From the NCBI GenBank assembly GCA_964527235.1, contig CAZGNC010000002.1, forward strand, positions 14,275-78,274: a stretch of DNA of 64,000 nt, written 5' to 3'. This DNA comes from an uncultured Candidatus Saccharibacteria bacterium (GTDB taxonomy: Bacteria > Patescibacteriota > Minisyncoccia > Phycocordibacterales > UBA9973). Within the stretch, counting starts at the first letter, position 1; each line of letters starts with the position of its first letter. The notes under the pieces are model-generated. The model made no database searches, was not told the origin of the DNA, and was given only the letters and a program-made list of their open reading frames with translations. Made by a program: the position numbers and the translations under genes. This document shows positions 642 through 57,400 of the stretch, piece after piece.

Positions 642-1229
642 TTATAAATTTAGTGCTTTATTTATATCTTTCTGCACATCTTCGATAGACTGCTCGCCGT
701 TTATGGTGTAGATTTCATAACCTGGTTTACCTTTGAAATATTCCATTGCAGGAATTACATTATTCTCATATTCAGCGAACCTGCGCGCTAGGCCTTCTTC
801 TGTATCATCTTTGCGTCCCCTCTTTAGGTTGCGCTTCATAGCTTCTTCTTTACTGAGTTCTATGTAGATAATTTTTACATTTTCTCTGTTGTAGAACTTC
901 ATCATTGCTTCGAAGTTCTCTGACTGCACGATAGTACGGGGATAACCATCAGCGATAAGATGCTTCTCGGGAGTTATGGACGACATTACTATATTTGCAA
1001 ATATAGAATTAGTTAGAAAGTTCGGCTGAAGTTCCCCGCGGTGTAAAGAATCCCGAACCAAACTGCCGGTATAACTATCAGACTCTATGAGGTTTCTAAA
1101 CTCTGCACCAGGGTAGGCATAGACTATCTCCTTGCCATCTTTGGCCTTAAGGAGTTCCATGAGTAGGTTTACTTGAGTTCCTTTACCAGAACCCACTATC
1201 CCAAAAAATACAAAAGTTTGAACTTGCAT
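642..1229 (-). CDS. adk: adenylate kinase
   Basis: P-loop GIVGSGKGT. The NMP-binding and LID regions are present, with ADGYPRT matching the adk DGFPRT motif. The position after secY is the conserved spc-operon position. Confidence 0.85.
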   Translation of the reverse strand: MQVQTFVFFGIVGSGKGTQVNLLMELLKAKDGKEIVYAYPGAEFRNLIESDSYTGSLVRDSLHRGELQPNFLTNSIFANIVMSSITPEKHLIADGYPRTIVQSENFEAMMKFYNRENVKIIYIELSKEEAMKRNLKRGRKDDTEEGLARRFAEYENNVIPAMEYFKGKPGYEIYTINGEQSIEDVQKDINKALNL

Positions 1230-1288
1230 GAATTCAGAATACCTAATTTTACTTGAAAAATCAAGGTTTAACTTGTATTATGTAGGTA

Positions 1289-1855
1289 ATGAAAAAAGAG
1301 ATTATAACTATCTGTGGAGGGCTTGGCAGTGGGAAATCTAGCACTGCGAAACTGGTCGCTAAGGAGCTTGGATTTAAGCATTTTTCCTCTGGGGACTTCT
1401 TTAGACAAGTCGGGGTAGAAATGGGACTGTCTGTAAATGAAATAAATAAAAGAGCAGAATCCGACCCAGAAATTGACTATCGCACAGATCAGAAACTACG
1501 GGACATGAGAGATGCAAGTAAGGTTGTTATAGACTCTCGCACAGCTTTTCATTGGATTCCAGAATCTTTTAAAGTTTACCTCGACCTCCCAGCAGAAATA
1601 GCAAAGCACAGAGTAGTAAAGAGTCTCACTGAAAATTCTTTACGTAACCAAAGTGAGCAAGTTTCAACCCCAGAAGAAGCCTATGAGAAGATGATTGAAA
1701 GACTAGAAAGTGAACAGAAAAGATACTGGAATTTATATAAAATAAATAACAAAGATTTAACTCAGTTCGATCTAGTAGTAGACACAAACAAAAACAACCT
1801 CGAGGAGGTTGTTTCTATCGTACTCAATGAGTACAAAAACTGGCTTTCAAAATAA
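1289..1855 (+). CDS. cmk: cytidylate kinase, archaeal/type-2 form
   Basis: ICGGLGSGKSSTAKLVAKELGFKHFSSGDFFR...DPEIDYRTDQ matches archaeal-type CMP kinases. It is encoded antisense between adk and secY. Confidence 0.65.
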   Translation: MKKEIITICGGLGSGKSSTAKLVAKELGFKHFSSGDFFRQVGVEMGLSVNEINKRAESDPEIDYRTDQKLRDMRDASKVVIDSRTAFHWIPESFKVYLDLPAEIAKHRVVKSLTENSLRNQSEQVSTPEEAYEKMIERLESEQKRYWNLYKINNKDLTQFDLVVDTNKNNLEEVVSIVLNEYKNWLSK

Positions 1856-14443: not shown

Positions 14444-15637
<1,194 letters not shown>

Positions 15638-16343: not shown

Positions 16344-17138
16344 CTACCTATACTTATTAATCTTCTCGCACAAATTTTGCGCTTCAGCTTTAGGATTATC
16401 TGAGAATATTATTCCCCGAGAGGAATTTATTATTAGACCCAACTTTTCTTTATTTAAACCAGACGTAATAACAGCCTCTAAGTCCCCTCCTTGGGTGCCG
16501 ATACCCGGTACAAGTAGCGTCATCTCTCCTGAGACCTCGCGAACCTTCTTAATTTCTTCGGGATACGTCGCACCCACTACTAGCATGCAGTTATTATTTT
16601 TATTCCAATTTTTAGAAACACTCTCAGCAACTATTTCGTAAAGCTTTTTACCACCACTTTCTAAATCCTGAAATTCTCCAGACCCCCCATTTGAAGTCTT
16701 GCATAAGATTATTGAAACTTTATCTTCTCTGTCTAAAAAGGGTTGCAAGGCTTCTTGGCCTAAATATGGATGAAGAGTTATCGCATCAGCCCCCAGAAAA
16801 TCATAAGCGAAAGCTACATAGCCGTTGTTGGTATTGCCGATGTCTGCACGCTTCGCATCTAGAATTGTGAAAATTTCTGGATAGTTTTGGCCCAAATAAT
16901 CCATAGTTATCTTGAGCTCTAATATCCCTTTATCCCCTCGAGCTTCGTAGAATGCAGTGTTGGGTTTATAAGCAGAAGCGTACTCGTGGGTCTCGTCAAT
17001 AATCCATTTATTAAATTCAAATTGCGGAAATTCTAAATTCTTAAATCGCGCAGGAATCTTTTCAAAATCAGGATCTAGCCCAACGCAAAGAAGCGAGTTT
17101 ATTTTTTTAGCCCTAGTGTTATATTTTTGTAATGACAT
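16344..17138 (-). CDS. pyrF: orotidine 5'-phosphate decarboxylase (type 2)
   Basis: LCVGLDP...DAKRADIGNT; OMP decarboxylase motifs. Confidence 0.8.
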   Translation of the reverse strand: MSLQKYNTRAKKINSLLCVGLDPDFEKIPARFKNLEFPQFEFNKWIIDETHEYASAYKPNTAFYEARGDKGILELKITMDYLGQNYPEIFTILDAKRADIGNTNNGYVAFAYDFLGADAITLHPYLGQEALQPFLDREDKVSIILCKTSNGGSGEFQDLESGGKKLYEIVAESVSKNWNKNNNCMLVVGATYPEEIKKVREVSGEMTLLVPGIGTQGGDLEAVITSGLNKEKLGLIINSSRGIIFSDNPKAEAQNLCEKINKYR

Positions 17139-17741
17139 TTAATTACTCTGTGACTCTAGAAATTTCTTGCCATGACCAACTGTAGTATTAATCGGCACCC
17201 CACTTTTACAAAGCGGGCAGTCTTCACTCTTGTAAGTAGCGACGAAAATACTAGCAAGTGCTTCTTGGCCTAGATTTTCATTTCTATTAACCATTGCGCA
17301 AGTCGCCACTATCTCTCCCCCCGCCTCCTTGATAACATCTACAGTTTTAGCTACCGAGCCCCCAGTAGTTACGATATCTTCAACCACTAGAACTCTTTTA
17401 TTTTTTACATATTTGTCATACCCGCGAGTAAAGACCTGACCACTTATGGGGCTCTTTTCAGTATAAACTCCCAAAACTTCCCTACCTGTCATCTTGCTTA
17501 AAGCATATGCAGTCCACTGAGAAAGGATTATGCCTCCCATCGCAGGACCAACTACAACTTCGATGTTTTTATCTTTATATTTTTCAGCAAAAAGCTCTCC
17601 TATTCTTTTCGCATCTTCAGTATGAACATATAAAAAATCTTTATTAATGTAAGTATCAAAATGAAGCCCAAAAGTTCCAACAAAATGATCATTCTCGATA
17701 ATGGCTCCAACCCTATACAAGATCTCTACAACTTCTTCCAT
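17139..17741 (-). CDS. pyrE: orotate phosphoribosyltransferase
   Basis: PRTase type I PRPP-binding motif VLVVEDIVTTGGS. Confidence 0.8.
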   Translation of the reverse strand: MEEVVEILYRVGAIIENDHFVGTFGLHFDTYINKDFLYVHTEDAKRIGELFAEKYKDKNIEVVVGPAMGGIILSQWTAYALSKMTGREVLGVYTEKSPISGQVFTRGYDKYVKNKRVLVVEDIVTTGGSVAKTVDVIKEAGGEIVATCAMVNRNENLGQEALASIFVATYKSEDCPLCKSGVPINTTVGHGKKFLESQSN

Positions 17742-17745
17742 GATG

Positions 17746-18816
17746 TTATCCTAACTTTTTTTTAATCTCTTGTGCAAGTAATGGGTTCCACATGGCGCCC
17801 GTCGCAGACATCACGAAGTCTGCTCCAGCATCACGGTATTCGAAGAAATCTTCTGGGTCAGTAACACCGCCAACGCCTATGATTTGATAGGTTAAATTTA
17901 AATCCTCACGTAACTTTTTTAATTTTTTAACCATCTCGAGCCCTGCCCATTTAATAGCGTGACCACACAGTCCACTCACAGCCCTGCCCTCCCCAGGCAG
18001 GGCTTGGTTGCCTTCCTCGTCGGTGACCTTAGCTGGCAGAGTATTTATCGAAGCATAAGCCTGCACAAAAGGGCTTGTTTCTTTTATTAAATTTTTTAAC
18101 GCTTCATCGTCAGCAAAGTATGCAATCTTGGCTATTAGCGGGATAGGACCAATCTCTTTTTTGATCGCTTGCAATATTTGCTTAGTTCTTTCAGTGTCGA
18201 AACAAAGCAGATGCGCCGAGCCTTCGTTGGGACAACTTAAATTCACCTCCATGACTTTCACAGATGTTTCCTTTAGAAGCTTGGCACAAAGGGCAAAGTC
18301 TGCAATATATGCTTGCGCGTTTCCCTTCTCCCAGGATGTCCCCTGAAAGCTCCCCACCACGACCTGCCCGTGGCGGGCATAACGAACCGCATCAGATAAA
18401 TCTTTCTGCCAGAATTCTGGGTCAAACGACGGTACCCCGAAAGAATTCGTAATGAGCTCGGGCGTACCAGAACTATCTTTATCTACCACCACACCCTGTT
18501 TCATCTTCTCAAGCGTTAGATCACCTTCTATCTTCACAGACAAAACATTGGGCCACGGATGGCATGGATACTTCCCCGAGCGCACTGTTTTATAAATAGG
18601 AATATCGAAGCCCTTATCAAGTGCACCTTTTACGAATTTGCCATTCAGTAGCGGACCGGCTGGAATACCAAAAGGAGAATTCACTTCGAATCCTAGAAAA
18701 TTATATTTGTGTTCTTCTGTATTATCGAAAACTTTCTTATCAGCAAAAATACCAAAAGGCCCTTGATTGAAATTATCTTCGTATGATTTCTCGGGGTCGT
18801 AAAAAGGGGTAAGCAT
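17746..18816 (-). CDS. pyrD: dihydroorotate dehydrogenase-like flavoenzyme
   Basis: TIM-barrel DHODH motifs (NSPFGIPAG, NLSCPN, GGV...D). Adjacent to pyrE and pyrF. Confidence 0.65.
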   Translation of the reverse strand: MLTPFYDPEKSYEDNFNQGPFGIFADKKVFDNTEEHKYNFLGFEVNSPFGIPAGPLLNGKFVKGALDKGFDIPIYKTVRSGKYPCHPWPNVLSVKIEGDLTLEKMKQGVVVDKDSSGTPELITNSFGVPSFDPEFWQKDLSDAVRYARHGQVVVGSFQGTSWEKGNAQAYIADFALCAKLLKETSVKVMEVNLSCPNEGSAHLLCFDTERTKQILQAIKKEIGPIPLIAKIAYFADDEALKNLIKETSPFVQAYASINTLPAKVTDEEGNQALPGEGRAVSGLCGHAIKWAGLEMVKKLKKLREDLNLTYQIIGVGGVTDPEDFFEYRDAGADFVMSATGAMWNPLLAQEIKKKLG

Positions 18817-24859: not shown

Positions 24860-26089
24860 TTACGCAGGTACGAAAGTAAGCGCAGTGCCGGCTTTGCCAC
24901 TTCGGCCAGTTCGGCCTATGCGGTGTACATAAGTATCGTAAGTTTGAGGTACGTCGAAATTTATAACATGAGTCACATCTGGGATATCTAGACCTCTAGC
25001 AGCCACGTCTGTAGCAATCAATATATTTATTTTATCTTGCTTGAAAGAATCAAGTATTCGTAGACGTTCACGACTTCTCTTGTCACCATGAATGCCTCCT
25101 ACCTTGAACCCAGCCTGAGAAAGCTCTTTAGCTAGGGTATCAACACTGTGTTTCATCTCGCGGAAAATAAGAACTTTATCTGAGCCGTCTTTTTTCAATA
25201 CTTCATGAAGCTTGGCTATTTTCTCTTCTTTGGTTCTAGTACGGATGACGTCTTGGTCGATATTCTTAGCAGTCTCACCAGAAACTACAGATACGAAAAC
25301 TGGATCTTTCAAATACTCACTTGTTAACTTTTTAATCTCAGGAGAAAGAGTCGCTGAGAAGAAAAGAGTCTGGCGATCTTTCGCAGTCTTGCCGATAATG
25401 TAAACCATATCATCACGGAATCCCATGTCGAGCATACGATCTGCTTCATCAAGCACTACAGAATTACAAGTAGTTAAGTCTAAAACTTTGCGATCTATTA
25501 AATCTCGAAGTCTACCTGGGGTACCAATTACAAAAGAAACGCCCATTTTTATCTCACGAATTTGTTTCATTATTGGCAAACCTCCAACGCATGAAACTGA
25601 AAACATACCAAAACCAAAAGCGAGCTTCTTAAACTCTTCTTCTATTTGGATTGCTAATTCGCGAGTCGGTGCCATTATGAGCACTGTTTCCCTCTTGCTC
25701 TGACCTTTGGTCTTCGCAATTTTCTCAATCAAAGGAATTAGAAATGCTGCGGTTTTACCAGTACCGGTGTTCGCTAGACCAAATATATCCTTACCTGAGA
25801 TAGACACGGGTATAGACTGATCCTGAATAGGACGAGGTGCAGTGTAGCCAGCACGTGCTATGTTCTTGTGAAGTTGTTCACTTAAAGGAAAATCAGAAAA
25901 AGCATGCTTGGCAACGTATGGTCGCTCTGCAACTTGGACAGCCTTCTTAATAAAACGAGAAAAGTCTATCCTCTCTCCGCGAGATCGAGACCCTCCACTC
26001 CCTCCTCGGCCCTTAGGCTTGAAGCGAGATTTAAAATTAGTATTTGGACGTCCGAATTTAGACGGACGTGCCGGATGACGTGTGTACAT
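24860..26089 (-). CDS. DEAD-box ATP-dependent RNA helicase with an RG-rich N-terminal extension
   Basis: Q-motif, GTGKT (motif I), DEAD, SAT, HRIGRTGR (motif VI). Confidence 0.9.
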   Translation of the reverse strand: MYTRHPARPSKFGRPNTNFKSRFKPKGRGGSGGSRSRGERIDFSRFIKKAVQVAERPYVAKHAFSDFPLSEQLHKNIARAGYTAPRPIQDQSIPVSISGKDIFGLANTGTGKTAAFLIPLIEKIAKTKGQSKRETVLIMAPTRELAIQIEEEFKKLAFGFGMFSVSCVGGLPIMKQIREIKMGVSFVIGTPGRLRDLIDRKVLDLTTCNSVVLDEADRMLDMGFRDDMVYIIGKTAKDRQTLFFSATLSPEIKKLTSEYLKDPVFVSVVSGETAKNIDQDVIRTRTKEEKIAKLHEVLKKDGSDKVLIFREMKHSVDTLAKELSQAGFKVGGIHGDKRSRERLRILDSFKQDKINILIATDVAARGLDIPDVTHVINFDVPQTYDTYVHRIGRTGRSGKAGTALTFVPA

Positions 26090-26237
26090 ATGCTTTATTT
26101 GTCATGGATACTAGCTCAATGACAAACATCGCTAATTTCCACAAAGTCAGTCTCGTTAGAATAATTTCATCCGCCTTTGGCGGAAGTGAGAATGATTTTA
26201 GAAGAATAGCATTTTACATTGAACTTGTCAATGTTTC

Positions 26238-26666
26238 TTAAGAAAATCTAACCTTTGTGGCATTAATTATTTCTTCAGTTGAATTATATCTTTCAAAGGC
26301 AAAGTCTGGGTGAGTTATACCCCGGATCAACCTTGTAACCTCTGAGTCTTTATGAGCCATGGCAAGCACTGGTATCCCCCTCTTCTCTACCGCAGTAGCG
26401 ATCTCATAACCAAGCCCAAGCGATGGAAAGTCGCAAATAGCCAGCATGCAGTCTGCTTTCATCACACACTCTTTGATATCAAAATTATAAACTTCAGGTG
26501 GTGAAGCTTGTGATGCATCATCAACACCCAAAAACTCCATAACTTCAAAAAATTCACTTAAAGAATTTTTAACTTCTCTGATAGTTCTTAAAAATTCCAC
26601 TTTTTTATCTAGGGGTAAATTAGTTAGGGCGCAACCTATATAAAGCTTCTTCTTCATTTTATTCAA
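26238..26666 (-). CDS. nucleoside 2-deoxyribosyltransferase superfamily protein, DNPH1/Rcl-like (2'-deoxynucleoside 5'-phosphate N-hydrolase-like)
   Basis: KLYIGCALT...ADCMLAICDFPSLGLGYEIATAVEKRGIPVL matches the DNPH1/NDT core (compare ADVVVAEVTQPSLGVGYELG). Confidence 0.55.
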   Translation of the reverse strand: MNKMKKKLYIGCALTNLPLDKKVEFLRTIREVKNSLSEFFEVMEFLGVDDASQASPPEVYNFDIKECVMKADCMLAICDFPSLGLGYEIATAVEKRGIPVLAMAHKDSEVTRLIRGITHPDFAFERYNSTEEIINATKVRFS

Positions 26667-27180
26667 ACTGACGACCCATTATGTTCCCAGGATTATTTAT
26701 ATCAAATAACACTTCACTACCCTGCAACAAAAATACACGCTTAACGCCAGCTTCAATCATTTTGTCCCAACATGGCTTACAACACCACCAATGCCCCCAA
26801 AGATATAAATCTAAATTAGAATTAACTTTCTGTGGAAATTTTTTTAATAATATAGCAGAAGCTCTGTACTCACCATGATTTTCATGGGAAGCACATCCTG
26901 GGCAAAGCCAATACTTTTGACCAGAAGGCACACCAAACATTCTGCGAATACAATGTTTCTTATGTAAATTTTTAAGAAATGGGTTAGATAATGGTGTCTT
27001 ATTAGAAGCTTCAATTATAATTTCCCCATTCTCAACAATCACAGCTCCTGTTGGGAAACTCTGGTCGTTGGAAGTTCGAGCAATTTCTTTAGCTTTTTGC
27101 ATGTATTTATTTGAGCCATCAACGTATTCAATACTTTTACCTTCCGGTAGATAAGGATATTTTATATTTTTTGTTTCCAT
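26659..27180 (-). CDS. CMP/dCMP-type (CDA-fold) zinc deaminase, divergent
   Basis: SHENHGE (H.E) and CKPC zinc ligands, with C-terminal MIEAGVKRVFLL matching the dCMP deaminase helix. An extra Cys cluster suggests a second zinc site. Confidence 0.55.
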   Translation of the reverse strand: METKNIKYPYLPEGKSIEYVDGSNKYMQKAKEIARTSNDQSFPTGAVIVENGEIIIEASNKTPLSNPFLKNLHKKHCIRRMFGVPSGQKYWLCPGCASHENHGEYRASAILLKKFPQKVNSNLDLYLWGHWWCCKPCWDKMIEAGVKRVFLLQGSEVLFDINNPGNIMGRQFE

Positions 27181-27205
27181 ATATTTATATTGTATACTTT
27201 ACTAC

Positions 27206-28039
27206 ATGACCCCATTCGACACAATCTACCAAAACATTATAAAGCAGATAATGGAAGAAGGTATAGAGGAATTGAACGAGCGCACCGGGCATAAGACCAA
27301 AGCTCTCCCCGGAATCACATTTTCTTTAGACATTGAGAGAGACGGATTCCCTGTTCTAACTTTAAGGAAAAACCCAATAAAGTCACCCATAGCAGAACAG
27401 ATATGGTTTATCACCGGAGAAAAAGAAACAACTTTTTTAAGGAAATTCACTAAGATGTGGGATTTATTCACTGAGTCAGACGGCACGGTTGCGGCTGCTT
27501 ATGGCTGGCGCTGGCGACATCATTTCGGCAGAGATCAGCTTGGTAAGACTATTGAATTATTGGAGAAAGAACCAAGCTCTCGTCATGGAGTAATAATCAC
27601 CTGGGACCCTAAAGACGATGGCTATGGTGGCACACCAAAGAAGAACGTTCCCTGCCCCTATACCTACACTCTCAACATCATTGGTGGCCGGCTCAATATG
27701 CACAACATCCTCCGATCTGAAGACATGATTCTGGGTTGTCCTTTTGATGTTCTGGGTTTTGCGCTACTTCAATGCATGATTGCTCAAAGACTCGGAGTCC
27801 GTCCTGGAGTACTCACTCAGTCAATTTCCAATGCTCATGTTTACGACAATCACTACGAAGGAGCGAGGGAAATAATCAGCAGGACTAATGAACATCCTAA
27901 AATAGAACTACACCTACCAGAAAATGCATTCAAGCGCGCTGAACAAAAAGACGAAAATTTAGTCGGAGAAATTTTCGCAGATTTACAAGCACAATACAAT
28001 CCTCTACCCGCAATAGGAGGATTAGACATAGCACTATAA
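27206..28039 (+). CDS. thymidylate synthase (ThyA) family enzyme with Asp in place of the uracil-specifying Asn (GCPFDV vs GLPFNI); possible dCMP methyl- or hydroxymethyl-transferase
   Basis: Aligns to ThyA motifs (ERTGHKT, EQIWF, YGWRWRHHFG, VPCPYTY catalytic Cys, LRSED, PFD). Asn177 to Asp is the known dUMP-to-dCMP specificity switch in the TS / dCMP hydroxymethylase family. Confidence 0.6.
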   Translation: MTPFDTIYQNIIKQIMEEGIEELNERTGHKTKALPGITFSLDIERDGFPVLTLRKNPIKSPIAEQIWFITGEKETTFLRKFTKMWDLFTESDGTVAAAYGWRWRHHFGRDQLGKTIELLEKEPSSRHGVIITWDPKDDGYGGTPKKNVPCPYTYTLNIIGGRLNMHNILRSEDMILGCPFDVLGFALLQCMIAQRLGVRPGVLTQSISNAHVYDNHYEGAREIISRTNEHPKIELHLPENAFKRAEQKDENLVGEIFADLQAQYNPLPAIGGLDIAL

Positions 28040-28044
28040 AATAT

Positions 28045-28536
28045 ATGATTTCACTTATCGCCGCCATCGGGAAAAACTATGAACTAGGAAAGAAAAATGC
28101 TCTTCTTTGGAATTTGCCATTGGACATGAAGCATTTTCAAGACACAACCCGCGGACATACTGTCATAATGGGACAGAAGACATATGAATCTATGGGCAAA
28201 CCTCTACCCAATCGTAAAAACATAGTAGTGACTAGAAATAAAGATTTCAAAGCAGAGGGAGTCGAGATTTCTTACTCTCTCGAAGATACAATCGAATCTT
28301 TTAAGGATAGCCCTGAAGAAATTTTTGTTATTGGCGGAGGAGAAATATATAAACAAACTATCAACAATGCTGACAGGCTATATATAACGCACGTAAATGC
28401 AACATTCCCCGACGCAGACACGTTCTTCCCAGAGATAATACCGATAGTGTGGAACGAGGTTTCGCACGAAGAACACAAGGCAGACTCTAGGCACGCCTTT
28501 GATTATACTTTTTCTACCTACGAGAAATTCTTCTAA
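28045..28536 (+). CDS. folA: dihydrofolate reductase
   Basis: MISLIAAIGKNYELGKKNALLWNLPLDMKHF...VIMGQKTYESMGKPLPNRKNIVVTR; DHFR motifs. Confidence 0.85.
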   Translation: MISLIAAIGKNYELGKKNALLWNLPLDMKHFQDTTRGHTVIMGQKTYESMGKPLPNRKNIVVTRNKDFKAEGVEISYSLEDTIESFKDSPEEIFVIGGGEIYKQTINNADRLYITHVNATFPDADTFFPEIIPIVWNEVSHEEHKADSRHAFDYTFSTYEKFF

Positions 28537-28859
28537 GGATCTTCGGGGGTTCGAATACGAATAAATATGTCTTTACCGTCAGGAGATTTCTCTTTCCTAT
28601 ATTTTCTAGTTTTGTTCTTCTCCACTTTATCCACTAATTCTTTCTCTAGATCAAAGCCGAGATTGTGAGAAATACCAAGTAGAAAAATAATCACATCTGC
28701 AAACTCTTCTGCTACCCCAGGCTGGTTGCGATCATATTTTGAAAACGCTTCTGAAAGTTCTTCGTACGCACGGCAGAAATCATTAACCACGTCATTACGA
28801 AAGCCCTTCTCTGCCCTGTTAGCCATTATGTCTGCTGTAAGTTTTTTGAAATCAACCAT
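28533..28859 (-). CDS. MazG-like nucleoside triphosphate pyrophosphohydrolase (small all-alpha NTP-PPase)
   Basis: EELSEAF...EEFADVIIFLL; the MazG/HisE-type EExxE...D metal-binding helices. Confidence 0.5.
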   Translation of the reverse strand: MVDFKKLTADIMANRAEKGFRNDVVNDFCRAYEELSEAFSKYDRNQPGVAEEFADVIIFLLGISHNLGFDLEKELVDKVEKNKTRKYRKEKSPDGKDIFIRIRTPEDP

Positions 28860-28937
28860 ACAACTAATATACTACCCTCAAATCAAAAAAGCCAACACTT
28901 TATCGTGCTGACCTTTTTGTTTTGAAAATTTAATTTA

Positions 28938-29360
28938 TTATTTCACTTCTATCCCCATTGAGCGAGCAGAGCCGGCAACTATTGCAATAGCACCTTCGTC
29001 GTCTTTAGCATTCAAGTCCTTTCTTTTCTTGTTAGCGATTTCTAGGGCTTGAGCGCGAGTGATCTTGCCTACCTTAGATGAGTTGGGATTACCTGAACCT
29101 TTCTCTACTCCAGCAGCTTTAAGGATCAAACCTGTAACTGGAGGAGTCTTAACAACGAAATCATAGCTTCGGTCTTCGTAGACGGTAATAGATACCCCTA
29201 CTTTGTCCCCTGCCATACTCTGAGTTGCGGCATTAAACTTGGTAACGAAGTCACCTATGTTTATACCAGCCTGTCCAAGCGCTGGACCTAAAGGAGGCGC
29301 AGGAGTAGCTTTCGCGGCCTGTATCTGAAGTTTTATTTTTTTGGTTATTTTCTTTGCCAT
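28938..29360 (-). CDS. rplK: 50S ribosomal protein L11
   Basis: [24 protein letters not shown]; L11 N-terminal domain. No rplA follows. Confidence 0.9.
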
Positions 29361-29389
29361 ATATTTTTTCTGTTATTTCTTAATCTATC

Positions 29390-29935
29390 TTAAATCTTCT
29401 TAACTTGCAAGAAGTCTAGTTCTACTGGAGTTTCGCGACCGAACATCGAAACCAGAACCTTAACCTTACCTCTTTCAGAATCCACTGAATTTACTTTGCC
29501 TTCTAAGTCCTTAAACGGTCCATCTGTTATTAGCACGGTCTCATCTATGGCTAGATCAATGTTGTGTTTAACCAGACTACTGTCCATCTTCTTAAATAGG
29601 TAGTCAACTTCTTCTTTTTTCAATGGAACTGGATTAACCCCTGCCCCAACGAAACCTGTAACTCTCGGAGTATTGCGCACAACATACCAAGAATCATCAG
29701 TAACTATCATGTCTACTAGCACATATCCTGGGTATATTTTCTCCTCTACCTCTACGCGCTTTCCGCCTTTAATCTTTATCTTTTTCTCCACAGGCACAAT
29801 GACATTGAAAATTTTGTCATTCATTCCAAGAGAATCGATACGCTGACGTAAATTTCGAAGCACCACATTCTCATAACCTGCATAGGTATGGATTGCGTAC
29901 CAATTTCTAGCTCCTTGTGTTTCTTGTCTAGACAT
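29390..29935 (-). CDS. nusG: transcription termination/antitermination factor NusG
   Basis: NGN domain (WYAIHTYAGYENVV) plus C-terminal KOW domain. Confidence 0.85.
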   Translation of the reverse strand: MSRQETQGARNWYAIHTYAGYENVVLRNLRQRIDSLGMNDKIFNVIVPVEKKIKIKGGKRVEVEEKIYPGYVLVDMIVTDDSWYVVRNTPRVTGFVGAGVNPVPLKKEEVDYLFKKMDSSLVKHNIDLAIDETVLITDGPFKDLEGKVNSVDSERGKVKVLVSMFGRETPVELDFLQVKKI

Positions 29936-41681: not shown

Positions 41682-42260
41682 CTAATCCCCGTCTAGTATT
41701 TGCCAGAGGTGTAAAGTTAGCTCTGTGTAGCTACCAATGTGTGGCTCTGCAAGTTTCAACATTTGTTTTTCGTTGGGTAAATTTTTGAGATTAAATGCTT
41801 TCTGAAATCCTTTCTTTGTTCCCAGATCGCCTAGGGGTAAAACATTCTCGCGATTCAGAGCAAATATCAGGAACATATCAGCCGTCCATGGACCTATGCC
41901 CTTCACTTGCATCAAGTGCTCTTTGATATCCGCATCTGCCATCTTATGAAAATTTTTGGGATCTATAGTTTTATCTAAAAACTTTTCTGCTAAGTCTTTC
42001 AAGTAGCCAGATTTCTGCGGTGAAATGCCAGCATACTTTAAGTCAGAAATTGAGAAATTAAGATAAATTTCAGGGGTTGGTTTTTTCTTGCCGAAAAGTG
42101 CCATGAACTTTTTATATATTGCATCCCCTGCTTTGGTAGAAATCTGCTGATAAATTATCGAACTCGCTAAAGATAGAAAATAGTTCTTGCTGGGAGTTAT
42201 TTTGCGAAGTTTTTTCTTATTTATCTTTAATTTTTTAGACATAAAATTAGGCAAAAGCAT
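41682..42260 (-). CDS. HhH-GPD superfamily DNA glycosylase (AlkA / 3-methyladenine DNA glycosylase II-like)
   Basis: LMQVKGIGPWTADMFLIFAL...LPLGD (HhH-GPD with catalytic Asp). Confidence 0.7.
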   Translation of the reverse strand: MLLPNFMSKKLKINKKKLRKITPSKNYFLSLASSIIYQQISTKAGDAIYKKFMALFGKKKPTPEIYLNFSISDLKYAGISPQKSGYLKDLAEKFLDKTIDPKNFHKMADADIKEHLMQVKGIGPWTADMFLIFALNRENVLPLGDLGTKKGFQKAFNLKNLPNEKQMLKLAEPHIGSYTELTLHLWQILDGD

Positions 42261-43416: not shown

Positions 43417-45120
43417 CTAGGCAAACTCGCCTTGGTAGCATTTCACGCAATACACTATCTCAGGTCTCTCAGGGGCATAAGGGGTGTAGATTGGTGCGCT
43501 ACACTTTGCACAATTCCTATGATACATTCCGGGCTTATTCAAGCGATTAAACCTAGCCTTCTCGCGACACTTAGAACACTCATGTGGCACAGGTAGTCCC
43601 ATCTTTTGTAAAAGCAAAAGCTCCCCTTTCACTATTCGATAGCTCCTTTGGCATTCTAAACATTCTATGACTTCTTCAAGCACAGCATCACTTGTCTCTG
43701 AAATGGTATCAGGCAACTGAGAGGAATGTATCGAAGATTGTGGGTTTGGGCTCTCTGTATCATCCCATTTATACGCCTCAGCGAGAGCCTCTTCTTTAGT
43801 CTTTGGGAAAAATCGCACAGCATTGGATTTATTGTAAGCAAACTTGTAAAACCCCGGCTTGAAAAACTCCCCATAAGTCCAAACAGTTCCATCTTCATCA
43901 ATATACGGATTAGTTTTCATGTCTTCTGCTATCTGCGCTTTCAGTTTCTCATATTCTTCTTTAGAGTATTCTTTATTTAAAATACAATAATTCTTGCGTT
44001 TCAAATTTACACAACCAAAATTATTTTTCCCATTAATACACCACCAAGAGTATTCAATATTTGAAACATCTGGGAAGCAAAATCCTGAAAACTTCACGTT
44101 GCTTGCTCCTGCACCCACATTCGTAGATTCATAAATAAGTTCTACGTTATTCCCCCATCCAGAATAATCCATGCAATCCTTAACAGACGGCACAGTCGTG
44201 AACTGACAGTACTTTGAATTCTCAGCATAGTTGAGAATATAACCTTCTTTAGAATTTTTAGACTGAAAAACATACTCACCGGTAACGTTTAAATTCAAGC
44301 TATGTCCGTGGTATTCCCTATATGGTTGAGTGAGCCAGAACTCATGCGCCTTACTCTCGAGGTCACGAAGGCCTTTCCAAGAGTCGAGGCGCAATTCTCT
44401 TATCTTTGCCTGGTAATCTTCTTTTGAATATTTAACATTGAAAATGCAGTTCGAGGCTCCTCGTAAATTTACACACCCAACACAATTTGTGCATCCATAG
44501 CAATTACGCGAGAACCATACATCAATACAATCATCACACTCGTCAGAAAAGAAGGTCCGGTAATTTCTAATAAATCCAATAGAGTCGTAACAAAGTTCTG
44601 ACTCCCATCCACGTAAACAATCTAAGCTATTTTTTAATCCATTGATAATAGATGAGTAGAAAACATTTTCACAATAGTCTGCCCACGACACAAGGTAACA
44701 ATCTTTAGAATACGCTATGGCATTACTGTAGTCACAGTTTTTCAAAGTTAGATATTCTGTTTCAAGCGCAGAATATGGAGTACGTTCAGAAAGTTCTTTA
44801 AGTTGAGCTAAGAATGGCTTGCTGGGATCATAATCCATCGCAAATTCAGTCCCGTCCCAAGAATCCCCCCACCAGCACGGCTGGCAATAAACTTTCAAGT
44901 CCGTTTCTGGAGAATACATAGACATAGTCTTCTTGCCACATTTGTCGCAGTTCCTCCAAAACAAAGACCAGCCATTCACACAAGATATTCGTCTTATTAT
45001 CCTGCACTCAGGGCACCAAGTAGGCGCCGGTACAGAAATCTTTTCATAGTAATTAAAATCTTCTGCGTCTACTGTAAATTCTCTTTTGCAATGCTGGCAG
45101 GATTTTGTTTCCGAGTTCAT
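43417..45120 (-). CDS. cysteine-rich protein (567 aa, about 50 Cys) with two zinc-ribbon pairs at each terminus and a Cys-repeat core; unknown function
   Basis: N-terminal: CQHC...CPEC and CDKC...CQPC. C-terminal: CLEC...CSKC and CAKC...CVKC. Central NC.Y...C repeats. Confidence 0.45.
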   Translation of the reverse strand: MNSETKSCQHCKREFTVDAEDFNYYEKISVPAPTWCPECRIIRRISCVNGWSLFWRNCDKCGKKTMSMYSPETDLKVYCQPCWWGDSWDGTEFAMDYDPSKPFLAQLKELSERTPYSALETEYLTLKNCDYSNAIAYSKDCYLVSWADYCENVFYSSIINGLKNSLDCLRGWESELCYDSIGFIRNYRTFFSDECDDCIDVWFSRNCYGCTNCVGCVNLRGASNCIFNVKYSKEDYQAKIRELRLDSWKGLRDLESKAHEFWLTQPYREYHGHSLNLNVTGEYVFQSKNSKEGYILNYAENSKYCQFTTVPSVKDCMDYSGWGNNVELIYESTNVGAGASNVKFSGFCFPDVSNIEYSWWCINGKNNFGCVNLKRKNYCILNKEYSKEEYEKLKAQIAEDMKTNPYIDEDGTVWTYGEFFKPGFYKFAYNKSNAVRFFPKTKEEALAEAYKWDDTESPNPQSSIHSSQLPDTISETSDAVLEEVIECLECQRSYRIVKGELLLLQKMGLPVPHECSKCREKARFNRLNKPGMYHRNCAKCSAPIYTPYAPERPEIVYCVKCYQGEFA

Positions 45121-50788: not shown

Positions 50789-51574
50789 TTAGATAGAGTC
50801 TTCTTTAGACTTGAGTGCTTCCAGATACTTTTCCATACGTTGAATAAGTGTTCTCCCTCTCTTGCCACCCGGGATTAATTCAAGTACGTCTTTATGCTGA
50901 TCGGATAATTTCCAGTAACGTAATGGTTTTACATAGCGAGCTAGTAAATGTTCGGTAATAACGCTGCACACTTCGGTTGAAGACATTAGCATCATAAGAC
51001 CCATCGCTACGGTTTCTTGCTCTTTAGGATCATATAATCCACCTACACATAATGGAGTCGCCGATTTGTGCGGCATAAGGTGTAACACACTCACATGTGT
51101 AAACTTATCACTGAGTGCCCCGTAAAATTGAGCAACAATAGGATGAACTTTTTTCACCTCTTTTATACTGTCAGTTGAATCAAATTTTCCGGGGGTTTTA
51201 GTCAATAACTCAAACCTATCTTTGTTTGCAGCAATGTCATACGCCGTAGCAAATATCTCGAAAGCATTACGTACTAGCATATGTGGCTCTCTGGGATAGC
51301 CAGCTCTAAAAAGACTCAGTGCAGCAAGTAGCGTGTTTAGACCAGTCCAGGATAACACAAATGCATGGAACTCATTATCGGGAATCTTATCCTGATCAGG
51401 ACGGTTAATAACCTGGTATAGCTCGTTGTACGTGTCTGCAAAATCTTCTACAAGATCTTTCAGTTCATCAGCATAGTGTTTGTCGTAGGCTTCCGCAATT
51501 TTAGCCTCATCCTTAAGTGCAGCCCACACAGCATCTTTAGTAATCGGAGGCATAGTAGGTTCCATACATACCAT
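50789..51574 (-). CDS. hypothetical cytoplasmic protein (about 255 aa), unknown function, adjacent to tRNA-Ser
   Basis: No recognisable motifs. Acidic N-terminal region. Confidence 0.35.
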   Translation of the reverse strand: MVCMEPTMPPITKDAVWAALKDEAKIAEAYDKHYADELKDLVEDFADTYNELYQVINRPDQDKIPDNEFHAFVLSWTGLNTLLAALSLFRAGYPREPHMLVRNAFEIFATAYDIAANKDRFELLTKTPGKFDSTDSIKEVKKVHPIVAQFYGALSDKFTHVSVLHLMPHKSATPLCVGGLYDPKEQETVAMGLMMLMSSTEVCSVITEHLLARYVKPLRYWKLSDQHKDVLELIPGGKRGRTLIQRMEKYLEALKSKEDSI

Positions 51575-52741: not shown

Positions 52742-53224
52742 GTGGACACACTAGAGAAATTAGAATGGGATGCACTAGAATACGATGAGAAGGATCGAGG
52801 CCAAGATTGGTTCTGGGCTTTGGGTGTTGTTGTTGGCGCAGGATCTATCGCTTCTATTTTATTTCAGAATTATTTCTTCGCTGCCTTGCTTGTCATTGCT
52901 GGGATCATGCTCGGCTTTTTCGCAATTAAAAAACCAGCGACAATTCACTACGAGATCAATAACAAAGGCATCAAGGCTAGAAATAATATTTATACTTTCG
53001 ACAGCATCAAGGCGTTCTGGGTTCGCACCGAACCAAAAGAAAACCAAATCAACCGCCCTACCCTATTCATACACTCTCAAAGATTTTTCATGCCTGTTAT
53101 TTCTATACCTATAGAAATTGAATCAGCTGATATGATTCGTGCGATAATGCTAGAAAAAGAAATCCCTGAAGAAGAAATGCAGGAACATATTTCTGAACAT
53201 CTAATGGAAATACTTGGATTTTAA
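52742..53224 (+). CDS. membrane protein, unknown function
   Basis: 160 aa, two TM helices, then a soluble domain. Confidence 0.35.
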   Translation: MDTLEKLEWDALEYDEKDRGQDWFWALGVVVGAGSIASILFQNYFFAALLVIAGIMLGFFAIKKPATIHYEINNKGIKARNNIYTFDSIKAFWVRTEPKENQINRPTLFIHSQRFFMPVISIPIEIESADMIRAIMLEKEIPEEEMQEHISEHLMEILGF

Positions 53225-53444: not shown

Positions 53445-53513
53445 CACGAAAGATCCTAAGTGGGGCACCCTGCCCTAATGAACCTTGATTTATGCCCTCC
53501 GAGGGGGCAAAAT

Positions 53514-54296
53514 ATGTGGCTGATCAAGATGCTAGCATTCTGCTTCCTTTGGGCCATCATGGCCGCAGAGGAAGGGCTCCGCCTAGTGGCGGACGCCCTG
53601 AAGGAGTCCTTCGGGACGGCGCTTCTGGGGAGGAAAAACGTACCGTTCTTGGTGTTGGCGCTCATCCTGAGCACAACCCAGCTCGAGGCGCAAGCACCCC
53701 GACGGACCGCAGACAACTCTGTAACCCCCCAGTGCAACCTGGGGACCGACTGGTCGGTCAACAAAAACCGCCCCGTTGCTTCCGACGAGAAGCTCTACCG
53801 CCTCGAAGGCGGTCCCGCCATCGTCGCCCAGCGCGAAGCACCCGGATCGACGCACATCGTCTACCGGCGATGCAATGTACCCCCAGGAACCGAAGCGTAC
53901 TGCAGCATCAGAGGCTGCTGGATCAAGGTCTGTGGCAACGACCTTGGTTCTCCTGAAGGATGGAAGTTCCCCATCGAAATACCGATGGGAGCGCCTGGAG
54001 TGAACGGGCGCGACGGGAAGGATGGACGAGATGGCCGTGATGGACAGATCGTCTACGCTCCCCCTGCATCGACCGCCCTAGTGCCAGACTTCGACGGACG
54101 ATACAAGGTCCGCGGGGATAGGGGCTTCTGGTGTTTCCGTGGTGCAGGTCAAGGTGCATTTTGCACCGCGATCGCCACCACAGCGGTCCTTGTGGCCAAG
54201 AACAACCTGCCACGAAAGGATGACGAGCCCAAGGGCGGCAAGCCCATCGTCGTAACCCTCCCCAACACAATCCTGATGGCGCTGTTGGGTCGATAA
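53514..54296 (+). CDS. GC-rich (about 58% GC) secreted protein with a short collagen-like Gly-X-Y run and several Cys; unknown function
   Basis: Hydrophobic N-terminus MWLIKMLAFCFLWAIMAA. GAPGVNGRDGKDGRDGRDGQ gives six triplets. The start is chosen at the SD-preceded ATG rather than the longer ORF-track start. Confidence 0.45.
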   Translation: MWLIKMLAFCFLWAIMAAEEGLRLVADALKESFGTALLGRKNVPFLVLALILSTTQLEAQAPRRTADNSVTPQCNLGTDWSVNKNRPVASDEKLYRLEGGPAIVAQREAPGSTHIVYRRCNVPPGTEAYCSIRGCWIKVCGNDLGSPEGWKFPIEIPMGAPGVNGRDGKDGRDGRDGQIVYAPPASTALVPDFDGRYKVRGDRGFWCFRGAGQGAFCTAIATTAVLVAKNNLPRKDDEPKGGKPIVVTLPNTILMALLGR

Positions 54297-54414: not shown

Positions 54415-57400
54415 ATGAAAAAAATAAAAACGTTTGCAAAATTATTAATGGTCGCAATTATCGCTTTCGCGGGAGTATTTGCTAATGCAAATCTAGTCCA
54501 GGCTGACTATGCAATACCTGCATGTAACACAGCTACCCTAAACGGAGCGGTAAATCCTAATGGCGCAGTAACTACTGTGTGGTTTGAATGGGGCCCAGGT
54601 TCTTCCATGCCCTATTCGACACCAAAGCAGACTTTCACCACAAGTGGAACTTTCAGCCAAAAAATAAGTGGCCTTCAAGAAAACTCTTCTTACTCTTTCC
54701 AAGCAGTAGCTCAGAATAGTTTCGGCACTTCTTATGGTTCAGTTATTTCTTTCACAACTCAAAACTGTACCCCAACTGTACCAGCTCCAACTGTAAATAT
54801 TTCTGCAGACTCTACCAACCTTTCATACAACGGCGCAACAACAGTTCGCTGGAATTCAACCGATGCTACTTCTTGTTCTGCATCTGGTGGCACAAACGGC
54901 TGGTCAGGAAACAAAGCAACTTCAGGTAGTTTCTATACAGGCAACCTAACATCTAACTCAACTTTCCACATTTCGTGTTCAAACTCTACCGGCTCAGACT
55001 CTGACTCGGTAACAATAAACGTTGCAAGCGCTCCAGTACAGAACCCAACTGTAAGTATTTCTGCTAGTCCTTCTTCTGTAGCATACAACGGTGCAAGTAC
55101 CATATCTTGGAATTCTGCAAACGCAACTTCATGTTCTGCATCTAGTGGTACAAATGGATGGTCAGGAAATAAGGCTCTGTCAGGAAGTTTCTACACCGGC
55201 AACCTAACTAACACTACGACTTTCACTATCACCTGTACTAATAGTTCAGGTCAGCCAGCTTCTGATTCAGTAACTGTGAGTGTAGGTAATGCGCCTGTAA
55301 GTAGCCCTACTGTAAGTATCACCGCTGATAATTCTAACCTCCCCTACAACGGCTCAACAACCATCCGTTGGAGTTCCAACAATGCTACTTCATGTTCTGC
55401 AACTGGTGGCACAAACGGATGGGCAGGAAACAAAGCTCTATCTGGAAGTGCAAGCACTGGATCACTAACAAATTCTCAAACTTACAATATCACCTGTACA
55501 AATAGTTCAGGCTCCGCTAGTGACTCAGTATTTGTAAACGTAGGCAATGCCCCTGTAATAAGTGCTCCTACTGTAAACATAACTGCAGACAGTTCTAATG
55601 TTGCTTATAACGGTTCTACCACTATCCGATGGAATTCTAGTAACGCTACTTCTTGTTCTGCTTCAGGTGGTGTAAATGGTTGGTCTGGCAGTAAGGCATT
55701 ATTGGGAAGTTTCCATACTGGAAGCCTAACAAACGCAGCCACATTTCATATAAATTGTAGTAACAGCAGTGGCTCTGATAACGCTTCTGTAACCGTAAGC
55801 GTAGGAAGTCAGCAGGTACAAATGCCAATCGTCACAATATCTGCAAACCCAAACAACGTGTCCTACAATGGCACAAGTATAATAATTTGGAGTTCCACTG
55901 ACGCAACTTCATGTAACGCTTCAGGCGGCACCAACGGATGGGCAGGTACAAAATCTTTGTACGGCAACTTCAACACCGGAGCGATGACAGGCACTCGAAC
56001 ATTCAACATAACTTGTAGCAACTCTGCAGGGTCCAACAGCGCCTCAGTCACAGTAACTGTCGGAAACCAACAGATTATTAATCCGAACGTAACAATTTAC
56101 GCTGACGATAACGACATAGACGAAGACGACAGCACTATTATCCGCTGGACTTCTAACAACGCAGACTCTTGTTCTGCATCAGGTGGTGCAAATGGTTGGT
56201 CAGGAAGCAAAGCTCTATCTGGAAGCTTCCACACTGGCTCACTATCTAGCAACCGCACATTTAGCATAACTTGTAGTAACGAACAGGGATCAGACTCTGA
56301 TTCTGTAACCATAAATGTAGATGAGGATAATGGATCTTCAGGAGACATCAGTGTTGACCTTACAGCTGACGACACAAGTATCGACGAAGGAGATAATGTA
56401 AGACTTCGATGGGATTCTGACAACGCCGACGACTGTGAAACCATAGGAGGAACAAGCGACTGGAATCGTAAAAACATCGGCACATCTGGCTCATTCACTG
56501 TTAACGATCTTGATGATGATGAAACATTCAAAATCGAATGTACTAACGACGACGGAGATTCTGACACCGACTCTGTAACAGTACGTGTAAGTGGCAACAG
56601 CAATAACAACGACCGCCCTACGGTAGACCTAACTGTTGATCGTTCTGTTATAAATGCTGGCCAAAGCACTACTGTCCGCTGGGATGTAGAAGACGCCGAT
56701 GATTGTTACGCTTCTGGGGGGACAAATGGTTGGTCTGGGAGCAAGAACCGCTCTAGTGGTAGCTTCTCAACAGGCGCTATGTACGGAAGTGCAACATTCT
56801 TCCTTGATTGTGGAAACGATGAAGGTAACGAAAGTGATTCTGTAACAGTACAGGTTGTAAGTACTCCTGTAGTACAACCTCCCCAGACTATATATATCCC
56901 TAGCCCAGCCCCTGCTCCAATAGTAAGAAACACAACAACTTACATAAACACTGGTGGAGTATCTAAGCCTCTTGTAGAGCTTACTATCGACGGTGGCGAT
57001 GATTCTATCTCTACCAACGAAGAACGCATCTATGATGTTGAGTGGAAAAATATAAGCGGTCAAACTCTAAGAAAAGTTGCTCTACGAATAGTATTGCCTG
57101 AGTCTATGACTTTCGAGAATACAAATCGTGGATCTTATACTTCGAAAGATAACACCATCACCCTAGACGTAGACGAGCTTCGTCCTGGTGAAACTGGTGA
57201 TATGCTTTTCACAGCTAGAACCAAATCAACACTACGAAACAATCAGCTTGTTGTGGTTGTAGCCAACATGGTGTACACCGACAACTCTGATACCCAAGGC
57301 GATGTGGTTGCATACGCAACTCACCATGTAGACCTAGGTGGTAGTGTATTAGGAGCGAATGTATTCGGTGCAGGATTCTTCCCTACTACTCTTCTCGGAT

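Follow-up and report, generated by a model that had tools for sequence, protein, structure and literature searches.

A chromosomal gene module of Patescibacteria with a cytosine-type ThyA homolog, and a possible thymidine route in which methylation precedes deamination

Five tightly packed genes occupy positions 26238-28859 of a 64,000-nucleotide stretch of contig CAZGNC010000002.1 (hereafter the window), which comes from an uncultured bacterium of the Patescibacteriota; the source names of its close homologs point to Candidatus Nomurabacteria / Paceibacterota. They encode a DNPH1-like N-glycosidase, a zinc deaminase, a ThyA-family homolog of thymidylate synthase (TS), a dihydrofolate reductase (DHFR) and a MazG-like pyrophosphatase. 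We propose, with a probability of roughly 0.55, that this module is a cellular version of the pyrimidine module of phage XP12, and that its reversed route, methylation first and deamination second, is the lineage's source of thymidine nucleotides. The reversed order is favoured because the TS homolog has an invariant cytosine-type residue set, because it belongs to a cluster whose assayed members make 5-methyl-dCMP, because a lineage-specific deaminase always travels with it, and because a dCTP-deaminase homolog is retained with its deaminase residue lost. The cluster had been recognized in an earlier model reading of the DNA letters (the sequence-only reading). All five open reading frames were found at the coordinates given there, and the proposed families were confirmed by Pfam for four proteins and by Protein Data Bank (PDB) matches together with an AlphaFold fold for the DNPH1-like protein.

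In TS, Gln165 together with Asn177 and His147 reads the O4/N3-H face of uracil, while H207 and Y209 bind the 3'-OH of deoxyribose. The residues of the window protein were mapped in a MAFFT alignment with E. coli ThyA, the XP12 enzyme and gp42, the dCMP hydroxymethylase of phage T4, and E. coli numbering is used below unless both numbers are given. Compared with E. coli ThyA, Asn177 is changed to Asp181, His147 to Pro151, Gln165 to Leu169, Trp83 to Phe88 and Arg127 to His127. Kept residues (E. coli number in brackets) are R26 (R21), E64 (E58), W85 (W80), Y99 (Y94), R126 (R126), C150 (C146), R170 (R166), S171 (S167), D173 (D169), F180 (F176), H211 (H207) and Y213 (Y209), with C150 at the position of the nucleophile. 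HMMER alignments to solved thymidylate synthases likewise placed GCPFDV on GVPFNI and VPCPY on PCH. Both alignments thus agree with the sequence-only reading, which had called an Asp at Asn177, a Pro at His147 and an intact catalytic Cys, Arg and Glu. Its suggestion that Asp is also the state of the phage dCMP hydroxymethylase proved correct, since T4 gp42, like the XP12 enzyme, has Asp in the 177 column.

Conservation of these residues was counted over 81 species-level Patescibacteria sequences of the TS homolog. Asp177 was present in 81/81 and Pro147 in 79/81, and position 165 was aliphatic in 81/81. Every catalytic residue, including Cys146, Arg166, Glu58 and Tyr94, was invariant, as were H207 and Y209, so the enzyme is predicted to be active and under purifying selection. 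F176, present in the window protein, was found in 63 of the 81, and the R127 column holds His or Gln in these relatives versus Arg in XP12. Across this alignment the substitutions at 177, 147 and 165 are not chance but a fixed feature of the lineage. The sequence-only reading had treated Asn-to-Asp as the switch from dUMP to dCMP. The literature supports this: in mutagenesis studies the change of Asn177 to Asp made a dCMP methylase of TS (Liu and Santi 1992; Hardy and Nalivaika 1992, both as cited in PMC8670742), and no other two positions separate the TS homologs of cytosine-modified phage contigs from those of unmodified ones as well as 177 and 147 do (PMC8670742). The window protein moreover falls in an Asp cluster that contains 5-methyl-dCMP makers. 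Taken together, the TS homolog is likely a dCMP-specific enzyme.

The relatives of the TS homolog were collected with HMMER, by exhaustive search over 1.8 billion cluster representatives, and the best 150 were inspected. About 125 of these 150 nearest representatives (50%-identity clusters) have Asp, mostly after Cys-Pro; canonical Cys-His/Asn/Arg-Arg sequences appeared only from E ~1e-39 downward, and the nearest Asn-type representative ranked 79th. The nearest relatives outside the Patescibacteria group are phage enzymes, and the best matches among sequenced phages are Xanthomonas phage XP12 with its relatives and the Pseudomonas PaMx74 group; XP12 and PaMx74 have the same Cys-Pro/Asp signature. 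The XP12 enzyme is 35% identical to the window protein over the full length (E 5e-62) and shares RWRxHFGRDQL, WDPxxDGxG...KNVPCP and the C-terminal YNPxP tail. In a neighbour-joining sketch without support values, the bacterial clade lies inside the Asp cluster on a branch separate from XP12/PaMx74.

Both XP12 and PaMx74 encode a PRA-PH pyrophosphatase, the Asp-type TS, a deaminase and DHFR consecutively, with the pyrophosphatase at the place equivalent to that of the MazG-like gene. Among the closest representatives from outside Patescibacteria whose contexts were read, P0392 and P0137 are TS-deaminase pairs in phage contigs, one of which also encodes a PRA-PH pyrophosphatase, DNA polymerase, ribonucleotide reductase (RNR) and ligase. 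Fusions of dCMP deaminase to TS (in a jumbo-phage-like contig) and of PRA-PH to TS also occur within the Asp cluster. The unusual forms of Asp-type TS that we noted (P0136, at L084 8001-9302, P0171, P0153 and P0122) comprise a dCMP deaminase-TS fusion on a phage-like contig with RNR, a PRA-PH pyrophosphatase-TS fusion, an HNH endonuclease-TS fusion, and a 466-aa protein with a 190-residue Ala/Arg-rich N-terminal extension. The Asn-type relative P0199 is a phage gene with no adjoining deaminase; it fits the preprint statistics given next and adds little to them.

A recent preprint (10.1101/2024.12.05.627091) reported that 70% of dCMP-deaminase genes on modified-cytosine metavirome contigs lie within 3 kb of a TS gene, versus 6% on unmodified contigs, that TS genes on the modified contigs have cytosine-type residues, and that PRA-PH pyrophosphatase is among the top co-located domains. 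In the same study, 5-methyl-dC was made in E. coli by the XP12 TS homolog and by five of seven deaminase-linked metagenomic ones. The linked deaminase mSCD-B5 formed dTTP from 5-methyl-dCTP; it barely acted on dCTP and left monophosphates untouched. Cytosine is fully replaced by 5-methylcytosine (5mC) in XP12 and PaMx74 DNA, and the authors concluded that the thymidine nucleotides of XP12-type phages derive from the 5-methyl-dC pool, as indicated earlier by isotope work (Wang and Ehrlich 1982, as cited there). The sequence-only reading had suggested that the deaminase could turn a methylated cytidine nucleotide into a thymidine nucleotide, and XP12 and mSCD-B5 provide a phage precedent for it.

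For the distribution of the module, one genome per species was scanned for 185,579 species. A relative of the TS homolog was found in 477 genomes, and the locus counts below refer to the best 80 of these 477 (60-96% identity), each read as a 12-kb locus. By their record titles all 80 are Patescibacteria, some on contigs of 200-700 kb and up to 704 kb. The window-type deaminase gene is divergent from and adjoins the TS gene in 79/80 loci, the exception being a contig end, and a DHFR gene lies downstream of the TS gene in 76/80. A MazG-like gene was present in 54 loci, an adjacent N-glycosidase gene in about 14, rplK in 46 and nusG in 42, and the position beside rplK/nusG is kept in dozens of independent metagenome-assembled genomes (MAGs). 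Local sequence, namely the 64-kb window and the 80 related loci, was searched in six frames for the ThyX motif and by tblastn with E. coli ThyA, and no second TS-family gene was found there. The TS homolog looks like the lineage's only TS, kept vertically. Single loci showed insertions between TS and DHFR. In a Nomurabacteria locus (L014 6883-7659 (+)) there is a 258-aa P-loop protein with a weak Thymidylate_kin match (E 1e-4), of which no homolog was found in the window or the other loci, and in another (L021 7163-7906 (+)) a DUF6875 protein.

Since the closest TS relatives outside the group are phage genes, the module might be read as a prophage remnant or an assembly contaminant with no role in the cell's metabolism. 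We find this scarcely credible: the same position, from a helicase gene to rplK-nusG-secE, recurs in dozens of MAGs on contigs as long as 704 kb, the GC content of the cluster equals that of its flanks, and all catalytic residues are under purifying selection. The TS found no match above 40% identity in 2.9 million viral contigs, versus 60-96% among the bacteria, and none of 80 viral loci held a gene for the window-type deaminase, the MazG-like protein or the N-glycosidase. Because of this absence and the 40% ceiling in viral contigs, together with the synteny, prophage and contamination were rejected. In these comparisons only the TS of the module is clearly related to phage genes.

The deaminase matched Pfam dCMP_cyt_deam_1 at 44.1 bits (cut-off 25), had a best PDB sequence match of E 0.006 and matched no NCBIfam model. 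Its family comprises 539 proteins, all of whose named sources are Patescibacteria. The zinc motifs H101-x-E103 and C133-x-x-C136 are invariant in the family, and so are H72, C76, C92 and C95, a possible second zinc site. In the AlphaFold2 (AF2) model (pLDDT 87.9) the best structural matches were the dCMP deaminases of S-TIM5, T4 (Cd) and S. mutans and human DCTD, with TM scores of 0.45-0.6. By these comparisons the window deaminase is a lineage separate from ordinary dCMP deaminases. Orthology to the deaminases of XP12 or other phages was considered and rejected, the XP12 match being a local one of 16 residues in the C-x-x-C region.

The MazG-like protein just passed the PF12643 cut-off (27.6 versus 27 bits). 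It had weak PDB matches to the MazG-like protein SSO3215, the pyrophosphatase 4qgp and dCTP pyrophosphatase 1 (DCTPP1), and a metal-binding pattern E-x-x-E...E-x-x-D (EELSE...EEFAD) can be read from its sequence. It is predicted to be a pyrophosphatase that cuts dCTP, 5-methyl-dCTP or both to the monophosphate. In 19 loci without a MazG-like gene, which include Colwellbacteria, Vogelbacteria and Moraniibacteriota, a gene for about 210 aa stands between TS and DHFR instead and matches the Pfam dCTP deaminase-like (DCD-like) family (E ~1e-31 to 1e-35); these genes are L069 6867-7505 (+) and those of L054, L057, L061, L065, L067, L068, L070-L072 and L074-L082. Over the 80 loci, 54 have the MazG-like gene, 19 the DCD-like gene, none has both and 7 have neither. 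Six of the last 7 are cut off within 1 kb past the TS gene, and exactly one of the two genes is present in 73 of the 74 loci with enough flanking sequence.

All 18 full-length DCD-like copies have Pro in place of the catalytic Glu, which we take to be the deaminating residue of dCTP deaminases (E138 in E. coli Dcd). Where two solved enzymes read ITLELSN or ITLELFN, the DCD-like copies read LxLP(I/V)RNNT, and they keep the motifs PRSS and G-x-x-D-x-G-Y-x-G, common to dUTPases. A loss of the deaminase Glu with the pyrophosphatase motifs kept would be understandable in a lineage that needs dCMP rather than dUMP. A bifunctional dCTP deaminase/dUTPase giving dUMP was rejected as the function of this gene because Pro replaces the catalytic Glu in all 18 copies. 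DCD-like genes beside an Asp-type TS in two phage contigs (L084 9335-9973 (-) and L085 9376-9858 (-)) have Pro there too. The Glu-less subfamily always adjoins an Asp-type TS, in Patescibacteria and in phages; it is probably an undescribed family of dCTP pyrophosphatases.

An ordinary trimeric Dut gene lies near the module in about 18 of the 80 loci, of both slot types, roughly 1-5 kb upstream of the TS gene (L019, L021, L026, L042, L048, L054, L057, L059-L063, L065, L067, L076, L080, L081); no dUTPase gene was found in the 64-kb window. Neither slot protein is therefore simply the cell's dUTPase, a function we consider unlikely for both. On the simplest reading, both slot proteins, MazG-like and Glu-less DCD-like, are dCTP pyrophosphatases that deliver dCMP. 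Known phage dCTPases belong to the all-alpha DCTPP1/MazG kind (PMC13326640). The sequence-only reading had cast the MazG-like protein as a sanitiser of non-canonical nucleotides. It is more likely to supply dCMP than merely to clean the pool, because the Glu-less DCD-fold protein replaces it one-for-one in other lineages.

The DNPH1-like gene probably starts at the ATG at 26657, giving 139 aa, and a 139-aa form is on record (P0394). The weak PDB sequence matches of its product (E 0.02-0.05) all fell on Rcl/DNPH1/NDT, with PSLGLGYE aligned on PSLGVGYE. The family comprises 145 proteins, all named sources being Patescibacteria, and D69, G81, G83, Y84 and E85 are invariant, the catalytic Glu lying in the G-Y-E motif. 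Foldseek matched the AF2 model (pLDDT 90.2) best to DNPH1 (TM 0.72-0.78) and to MilB/BcmB (TM 0.7-0.8), and to true NDT at only 0.60. The fold named in the sequence-only reading thus held up, but with about 14 adjacent copies in 80 loci the gene is an accessory member of the module. DHFR matched the full span of DHFR_1 and the NCBIfam type 3 DHFR model (E 5e-41), and folA genes from other bacteria of the candidate phyla radiation (CPR) complement an E. coli delta-folA strain (PMC11974145).

The fold of the N-glycosidase raises the question of a hydroxymethylase, which would make 5-hydroxymethyl-dCMP or -CMP for cleavage by the DNPH1/MilB-like enzyme or for hypermodified DNA. MilB and BcmB, which the model matches, are the partners of the TS-like hydroxymethylases MilA and BcmA in mildiomycin and bacimethrin synthesis, and T4 gp42 also has Asp at 177. 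We regard such a product as very improbable. The glycosidase is optional, whereas DHFR, needed only if dihydrofolate is produced, is a neighbour in 76/80 loci. The window protein is 21% identical to T4 gp42 (E 8e-8) versus 35% to XP12, it keeps a C-terminal tail that gp42 lacks, H207 and Y209 are invariant in the relatives, and no glycosyltransferase or further tailoring genes were found near the module in the window. A methylase rather than a hydroxymethylase is thus supported by the DHFR neighbour, the TS-type tail, which aligns with that of XP12 and resembles that of E. coli, and the low identity to gp42. A T4-type hydroxymethylase was rejected on these grounds, and the sequence-only claim that DHFR implies a reductive methyl transfer is supported by them, though indirectly.

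In the route that we propose, the MazG-like pyrophosphatase, or the Glu-less DCD-fold protein in sister lineages, would first cut dCTP to dCMP. The dimeric ThyA homolog, judging from its conserved residues and assayed relatives, would then attack C6 of dCMP through Cys150, with Asp181 pairing with the N3/N4 face of cytosine instead of uracil, and methylenetetrahydrofolate (CH2-THF) would donate the carbon and then hydride to give 5-methyl-dCMP and dihydrofolate (DHF). The adjoining DHFR, whose function is assigned by family membership, would regenerate tetrahydrofolate. The zinc deaminase would remove the 4-amino group of the 5-methylcytosine nucleotide, yielding dTMP from a monophosphate or, as in XP12 and mSCD-B5, dTTP from a triphosphate. 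The optional N-glycosidase may dispose of surplus or aberrant deoxynucleoside monophosphates (dNMPs). The net reaction, dCMP + CH2-THF + H2O -> dTMP + DHF + NH3, would equal that of the classical pathway, but dUMP would not be an intermediate.

Several points weigh against this proposal. The choice of substrate is predicted from residues and from relatives that are 35-40% identical, and the placement in the neighbour-joining sketch is approximate. The deaminase is not orthologous to the XP12 or mSCD-B5 type, and its preference for 5-methyl substrates is a prediction. The evidence on thyX, an Asn-type thyA, tmk and dcd covers the 12-kb loci and the 64-kb window with some 7 kb of sequence on its left side. 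Dut is retained in many of these genomes; dUMP is therefore formed and could be used by an ordinary TS. Finally, the gene content is what the classical order also needs (dCMP deaminase, TS and DHFR), and synteny cannot decide the order of the steps.

The classical order would make the locus an ordinary dCMP deaminase-thyA-folA unit, in which the deaminase makes dUMP and the ThyA homolog methylates it despite its Asp, Pro and Leu. Besides the gene content, equal to that of the canonical pathway, and the dUMP that Dut would make available, the annotation speaks for this order: the protein passes the TIGR03284 thymidylate synthase cut-off (121.5 versus 108.35 bits), databases name it thymidylate synthase, and CPR papers that mention the gene treat it as ordinary thyA. 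It fell far short, however, of the four closest equivalog models: NF002497, NF002495, NF002496 and NF002499 gave 111-143 bits against cut-offs of 325-405 (about 143 versus 327). Asp at 177 converted TS to a dCMP methylase in the mutagenesis studies cited above, and the natural Asp-cluster members that have been assayed all gave 5-methyl-dC or, in the case of T4 gp42, 5-hydroxymethyl-dC. Nor would a lineage in search of dUMP be expected to keep a dCTP-deaminase homolog whose deaminating Glu has become Pro. We therefore hold the classical order to be unlikely.

The same dCMP methylase chemistry could also serve mainly to make 5-methyl-dCTP for DNA, with a chromosome that is largely or wholly 5mC. 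The pyrophosphatase would then deplete dCTP, a kinase would convert 5-methyl-dCMP to the triphosphate for use by the polymerase, and the deaminase would divert part of the pool to dTTP. All four functions of the XP12/PaMx74 module are present, and those phages are fully 5mC; a pyrophosphatase predicted to be directed at dCTP is kept in nearly all complete loci (73/74); the sole characterised linked deaminase acts on triphosphates only, which would put 5-methyl-dCTP in the pool; and tmk and cmk are poorly represented in Parcubacteria according to a 2015 survey (PMC4508563), which fits deamination at the triphosphate level. On the other side, we found no literature report that the DNA of these bacteria is modified. 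Neither the deaminase nor the pyrophosphatase is orthologous to its phage counterpart, so that the parallel is functional only, and a cell, unlike a lytic phage, would be burdened over the long term by mutations from 5mC deamination. Kinases are encoded (a Cmk-like protein, Adk, PyrH and Ndk), but nothing indicates that they accept 5-methyl-dCMP. On balance we would not expect DNA to be the main destination. A broader version, in which much or all chromosomal cytosine is replaced by nucleotide-level 5mC across the class (Nomurabacteria/Paceibacteria and relatives, at least several hundred species) and thymidine comes from deamination of the same pool, is speculative and, in our judgement, improbable.

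The layout of the locus is given in Table 1. The cluster sits between a DEAD-box helicase gene and rplK-nusG-secE. The deaminase and ThyA homolog genes are divergent, with only 25 bp between their start codons (27181-27205), so both promoters must overlap neighbouring coding sequences; this gap is very AT-rich, and a consensus scan for promoters and terminators over 25800-29600 gave nothing above chance. The N-glycosidase-like gene follows the deaminase gene on the minus strand, the DHFR gene starts 5 nt past the TS stop codon on the same strand, and the MazG-like and DHFR genes are convergent.

Table 1. Genes of the module and its ribosomal-protein flank (window coordinates)
Feature	Position	Strand	Remarks
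DNPH1/MilB/BcmB-fold dNMP N-glycosidase-like protein	26238..26666	-	142 aa from TTG; no Pfam match
Zinc deaminase, CDA/dCMP-deaminase fold	26659..27180	-	173 aa; Pfam dCMP_cyt_deam_1 E 2e-11
ThyA-family enzyme, predicted deoxycytidylate C5-methyltransferase	27206..28039	+	277 aa; Thymidylat_synt PF00303 E 7.5e-54
Dihydrofolate reductase	28045..28536	+	163 aa; DHFR_1 E 3e-59
MazG-like all-alpha NTP pyrophosphohydrolase	28533..28859	-	108 aa; PF12643 E 3.5e-6
rplK	28938-29360		upstream of the MazG-like gene, which lies just downstream of rplK/nusG/secE
nusG	29390-29935		then likely secE

The rest of the window is an ordinary small-genome chromosome of even GC content, with ribosomal proteins, EF-G, pyrD/E/F, glycolytic enzymes, UvrA/C, RuvA and Fpg. 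The genes pyrF (OMP decarboxylase), pyrE (a phosphoribosyltransferase) and pyrD (dihydroorotate dehydrogenase) are consecutive at 16344-18816 (-), flanked by an unannotated 397-aa open reading frame at 14444-15637 (probably EF-Tu) and the EF-G gene, within a ribosomal-protein region; such de novo pyrimidine genes are unusual in a lineage said to be without nucleotide synthesis. A series of nucleotide kinase genes spans window positions 642-1855 and the adjoining sequence about 7 kb to the left of the window (L170): Adk, with a secondary Thymidylate_kin Pfam match (E 1e-8), is accompanied by an oppositely oriented cytidylate-kinase-like gene, and PyrH, Map, a CYTH protein and Ndk follow. A clear Tmk was not found in this region, which bears on whether deamination takes place at the mono- or the triphosphate level. 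An HhH-GPD base-excision glycosylase is encoded at 41682-42260 (-), and XP12 encodes an HhH-GPD protein as well, located two genes upstream of the phage TS (L001 4744-5226 (+)). The parallel may be coincidence; a T:G-mismatch or 5mC-related role of the protein would be relevant if the DNA carries 5mC. The open reading frames at 54415-57504 (+) (1029 aa), 53460-54296 (+), 52742-53224 (+) and 50789-51574 (-) have no Pfam match, and the stretch that holds the 1029-aa frame and its neighbours has a GC content of 0.44-0.46 versus about 0.40 elsewhere. A 567-aa protein at 43417-45120 (-) gave a borderline treble-clef zinc finger as its sole Pfam signal.

The enzyme type, a dCMP methylase, and the module type, with pyrophosphatase, Asp-type TS, deaminase and DHFR, are already known from XP12-like phages. 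What is new is the setting in the core chromosome across a whole bacterial class, evidently with vertical inheritance, and, on the family assignments above, the assembly from different deaminase and pyrophosphatase families with an optional DNPH1/MilB-like glycosidase. In the literature that we covered, which mostly excludes subscription journals, we found no cellular dCMP methylase, no 5mC in Patescibacteria, no mention of the Asp switch in CPR thyA and no dUMP-independent cellular route. The textbook cellular routes to thymidylate, ThyA and ThyX, both start from dUMP, and the only known setting of methylation followed by deamination has so far been infection by phages whose DNA contains 5-methylcytosine. 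If the proposal is true, a large bacterial lineage uses a third route, annotation pipelines mislabel its key enzyme as an ordinary thymidylate synthase in hundreds of genomes, and phage nucleotide-modification genes have become housekeeping genes, or the reverse. Heavily methylated DNA would also be possible and would affect nanopore and enzymatic-methylation data from environmental samples. Should 5mC extend over the whole chromosome, it would be the first case of a wholesale non-canonical base in a cellular organism, and these DNA-scavenging episymbionts would have a means of distinguishing host DNA from their own. New 5mC-selective deaminases for methylome sequencing might in addition be drawn from the lineage-specific deaminase family.

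Compared with canonical ThyA and FolA (EC 2.1.1.45 / 1.5.1.3), the window pair has the same fold, the same catalytic Cys/Arg/Glu/Tyr/His set, the folate-contacting W80, D169 and F176 and the same tight thyA-folA linkage. The window protein differs by Asp177, Pro147, the aliphatic residue at 165 and Phe83, and its predicted substrate is dCMP, not dUMP. With T4 gp42 (EC 2.1.2.8) it shares Asp177, a residue other than His after the catalytic Cys and, by prediction, the dCMP substrate, but gp42 is without the TS-type C-terminal tail; a hydroxymethylase uses no reducing equivalents from folate, so it needs no DHFR.

Two further systems resemble the accessory proteins. The mammalian DCTPP1-DCTD-DNPH1 set combines an all-alpha dCTP pyrophosphatase, a dCMP-deaminase fold and a DNPH1-fold N-glycosidase acting on pyrimidine dNMPs, and the window proteins match these folds. 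The mammalian genes are unclustered, clean up nucleotides released from methylated DNA and have no coupled dCMP methylase, whereas the window proteins surround an enzyme predicted to make 5-methyl-dCMP on purpose. The MilA/MilB and BcmA/BcmB pairs likewise place a cytosine-specific TS-family enzyme (a specificity predicted here) beside a nucleotide N-glycosidase of the same fold. They differ in acting on ribonucleotides, in belonging to antibiotic pathways without DHFR or deaminase, and in that the window-type glycosidase is optional.

The XP12/PaMx74 module is one in which pyrophosphatase, Asp-type TS, deaminase and DHFR functions stand side by side as they do in the window. The TS proteins share the motifs VPCP, P(F/Y)DV and RWRxHFGRDQL and the YNPxP tail, and 5-methyl-dCMP is the product of the XP12 enzyme. 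The two modules differ in gene order and strands, the bacterial TS has His or Gln at R127, and the deaminase, pyrophosphatase and N-glycosidase of the window belong to other subfamilies without detectable orthology. The bacterial module, unlike that of the phages, is chromosomal, lies by ribosomal-protein genes and has been retained in hundreds of species.

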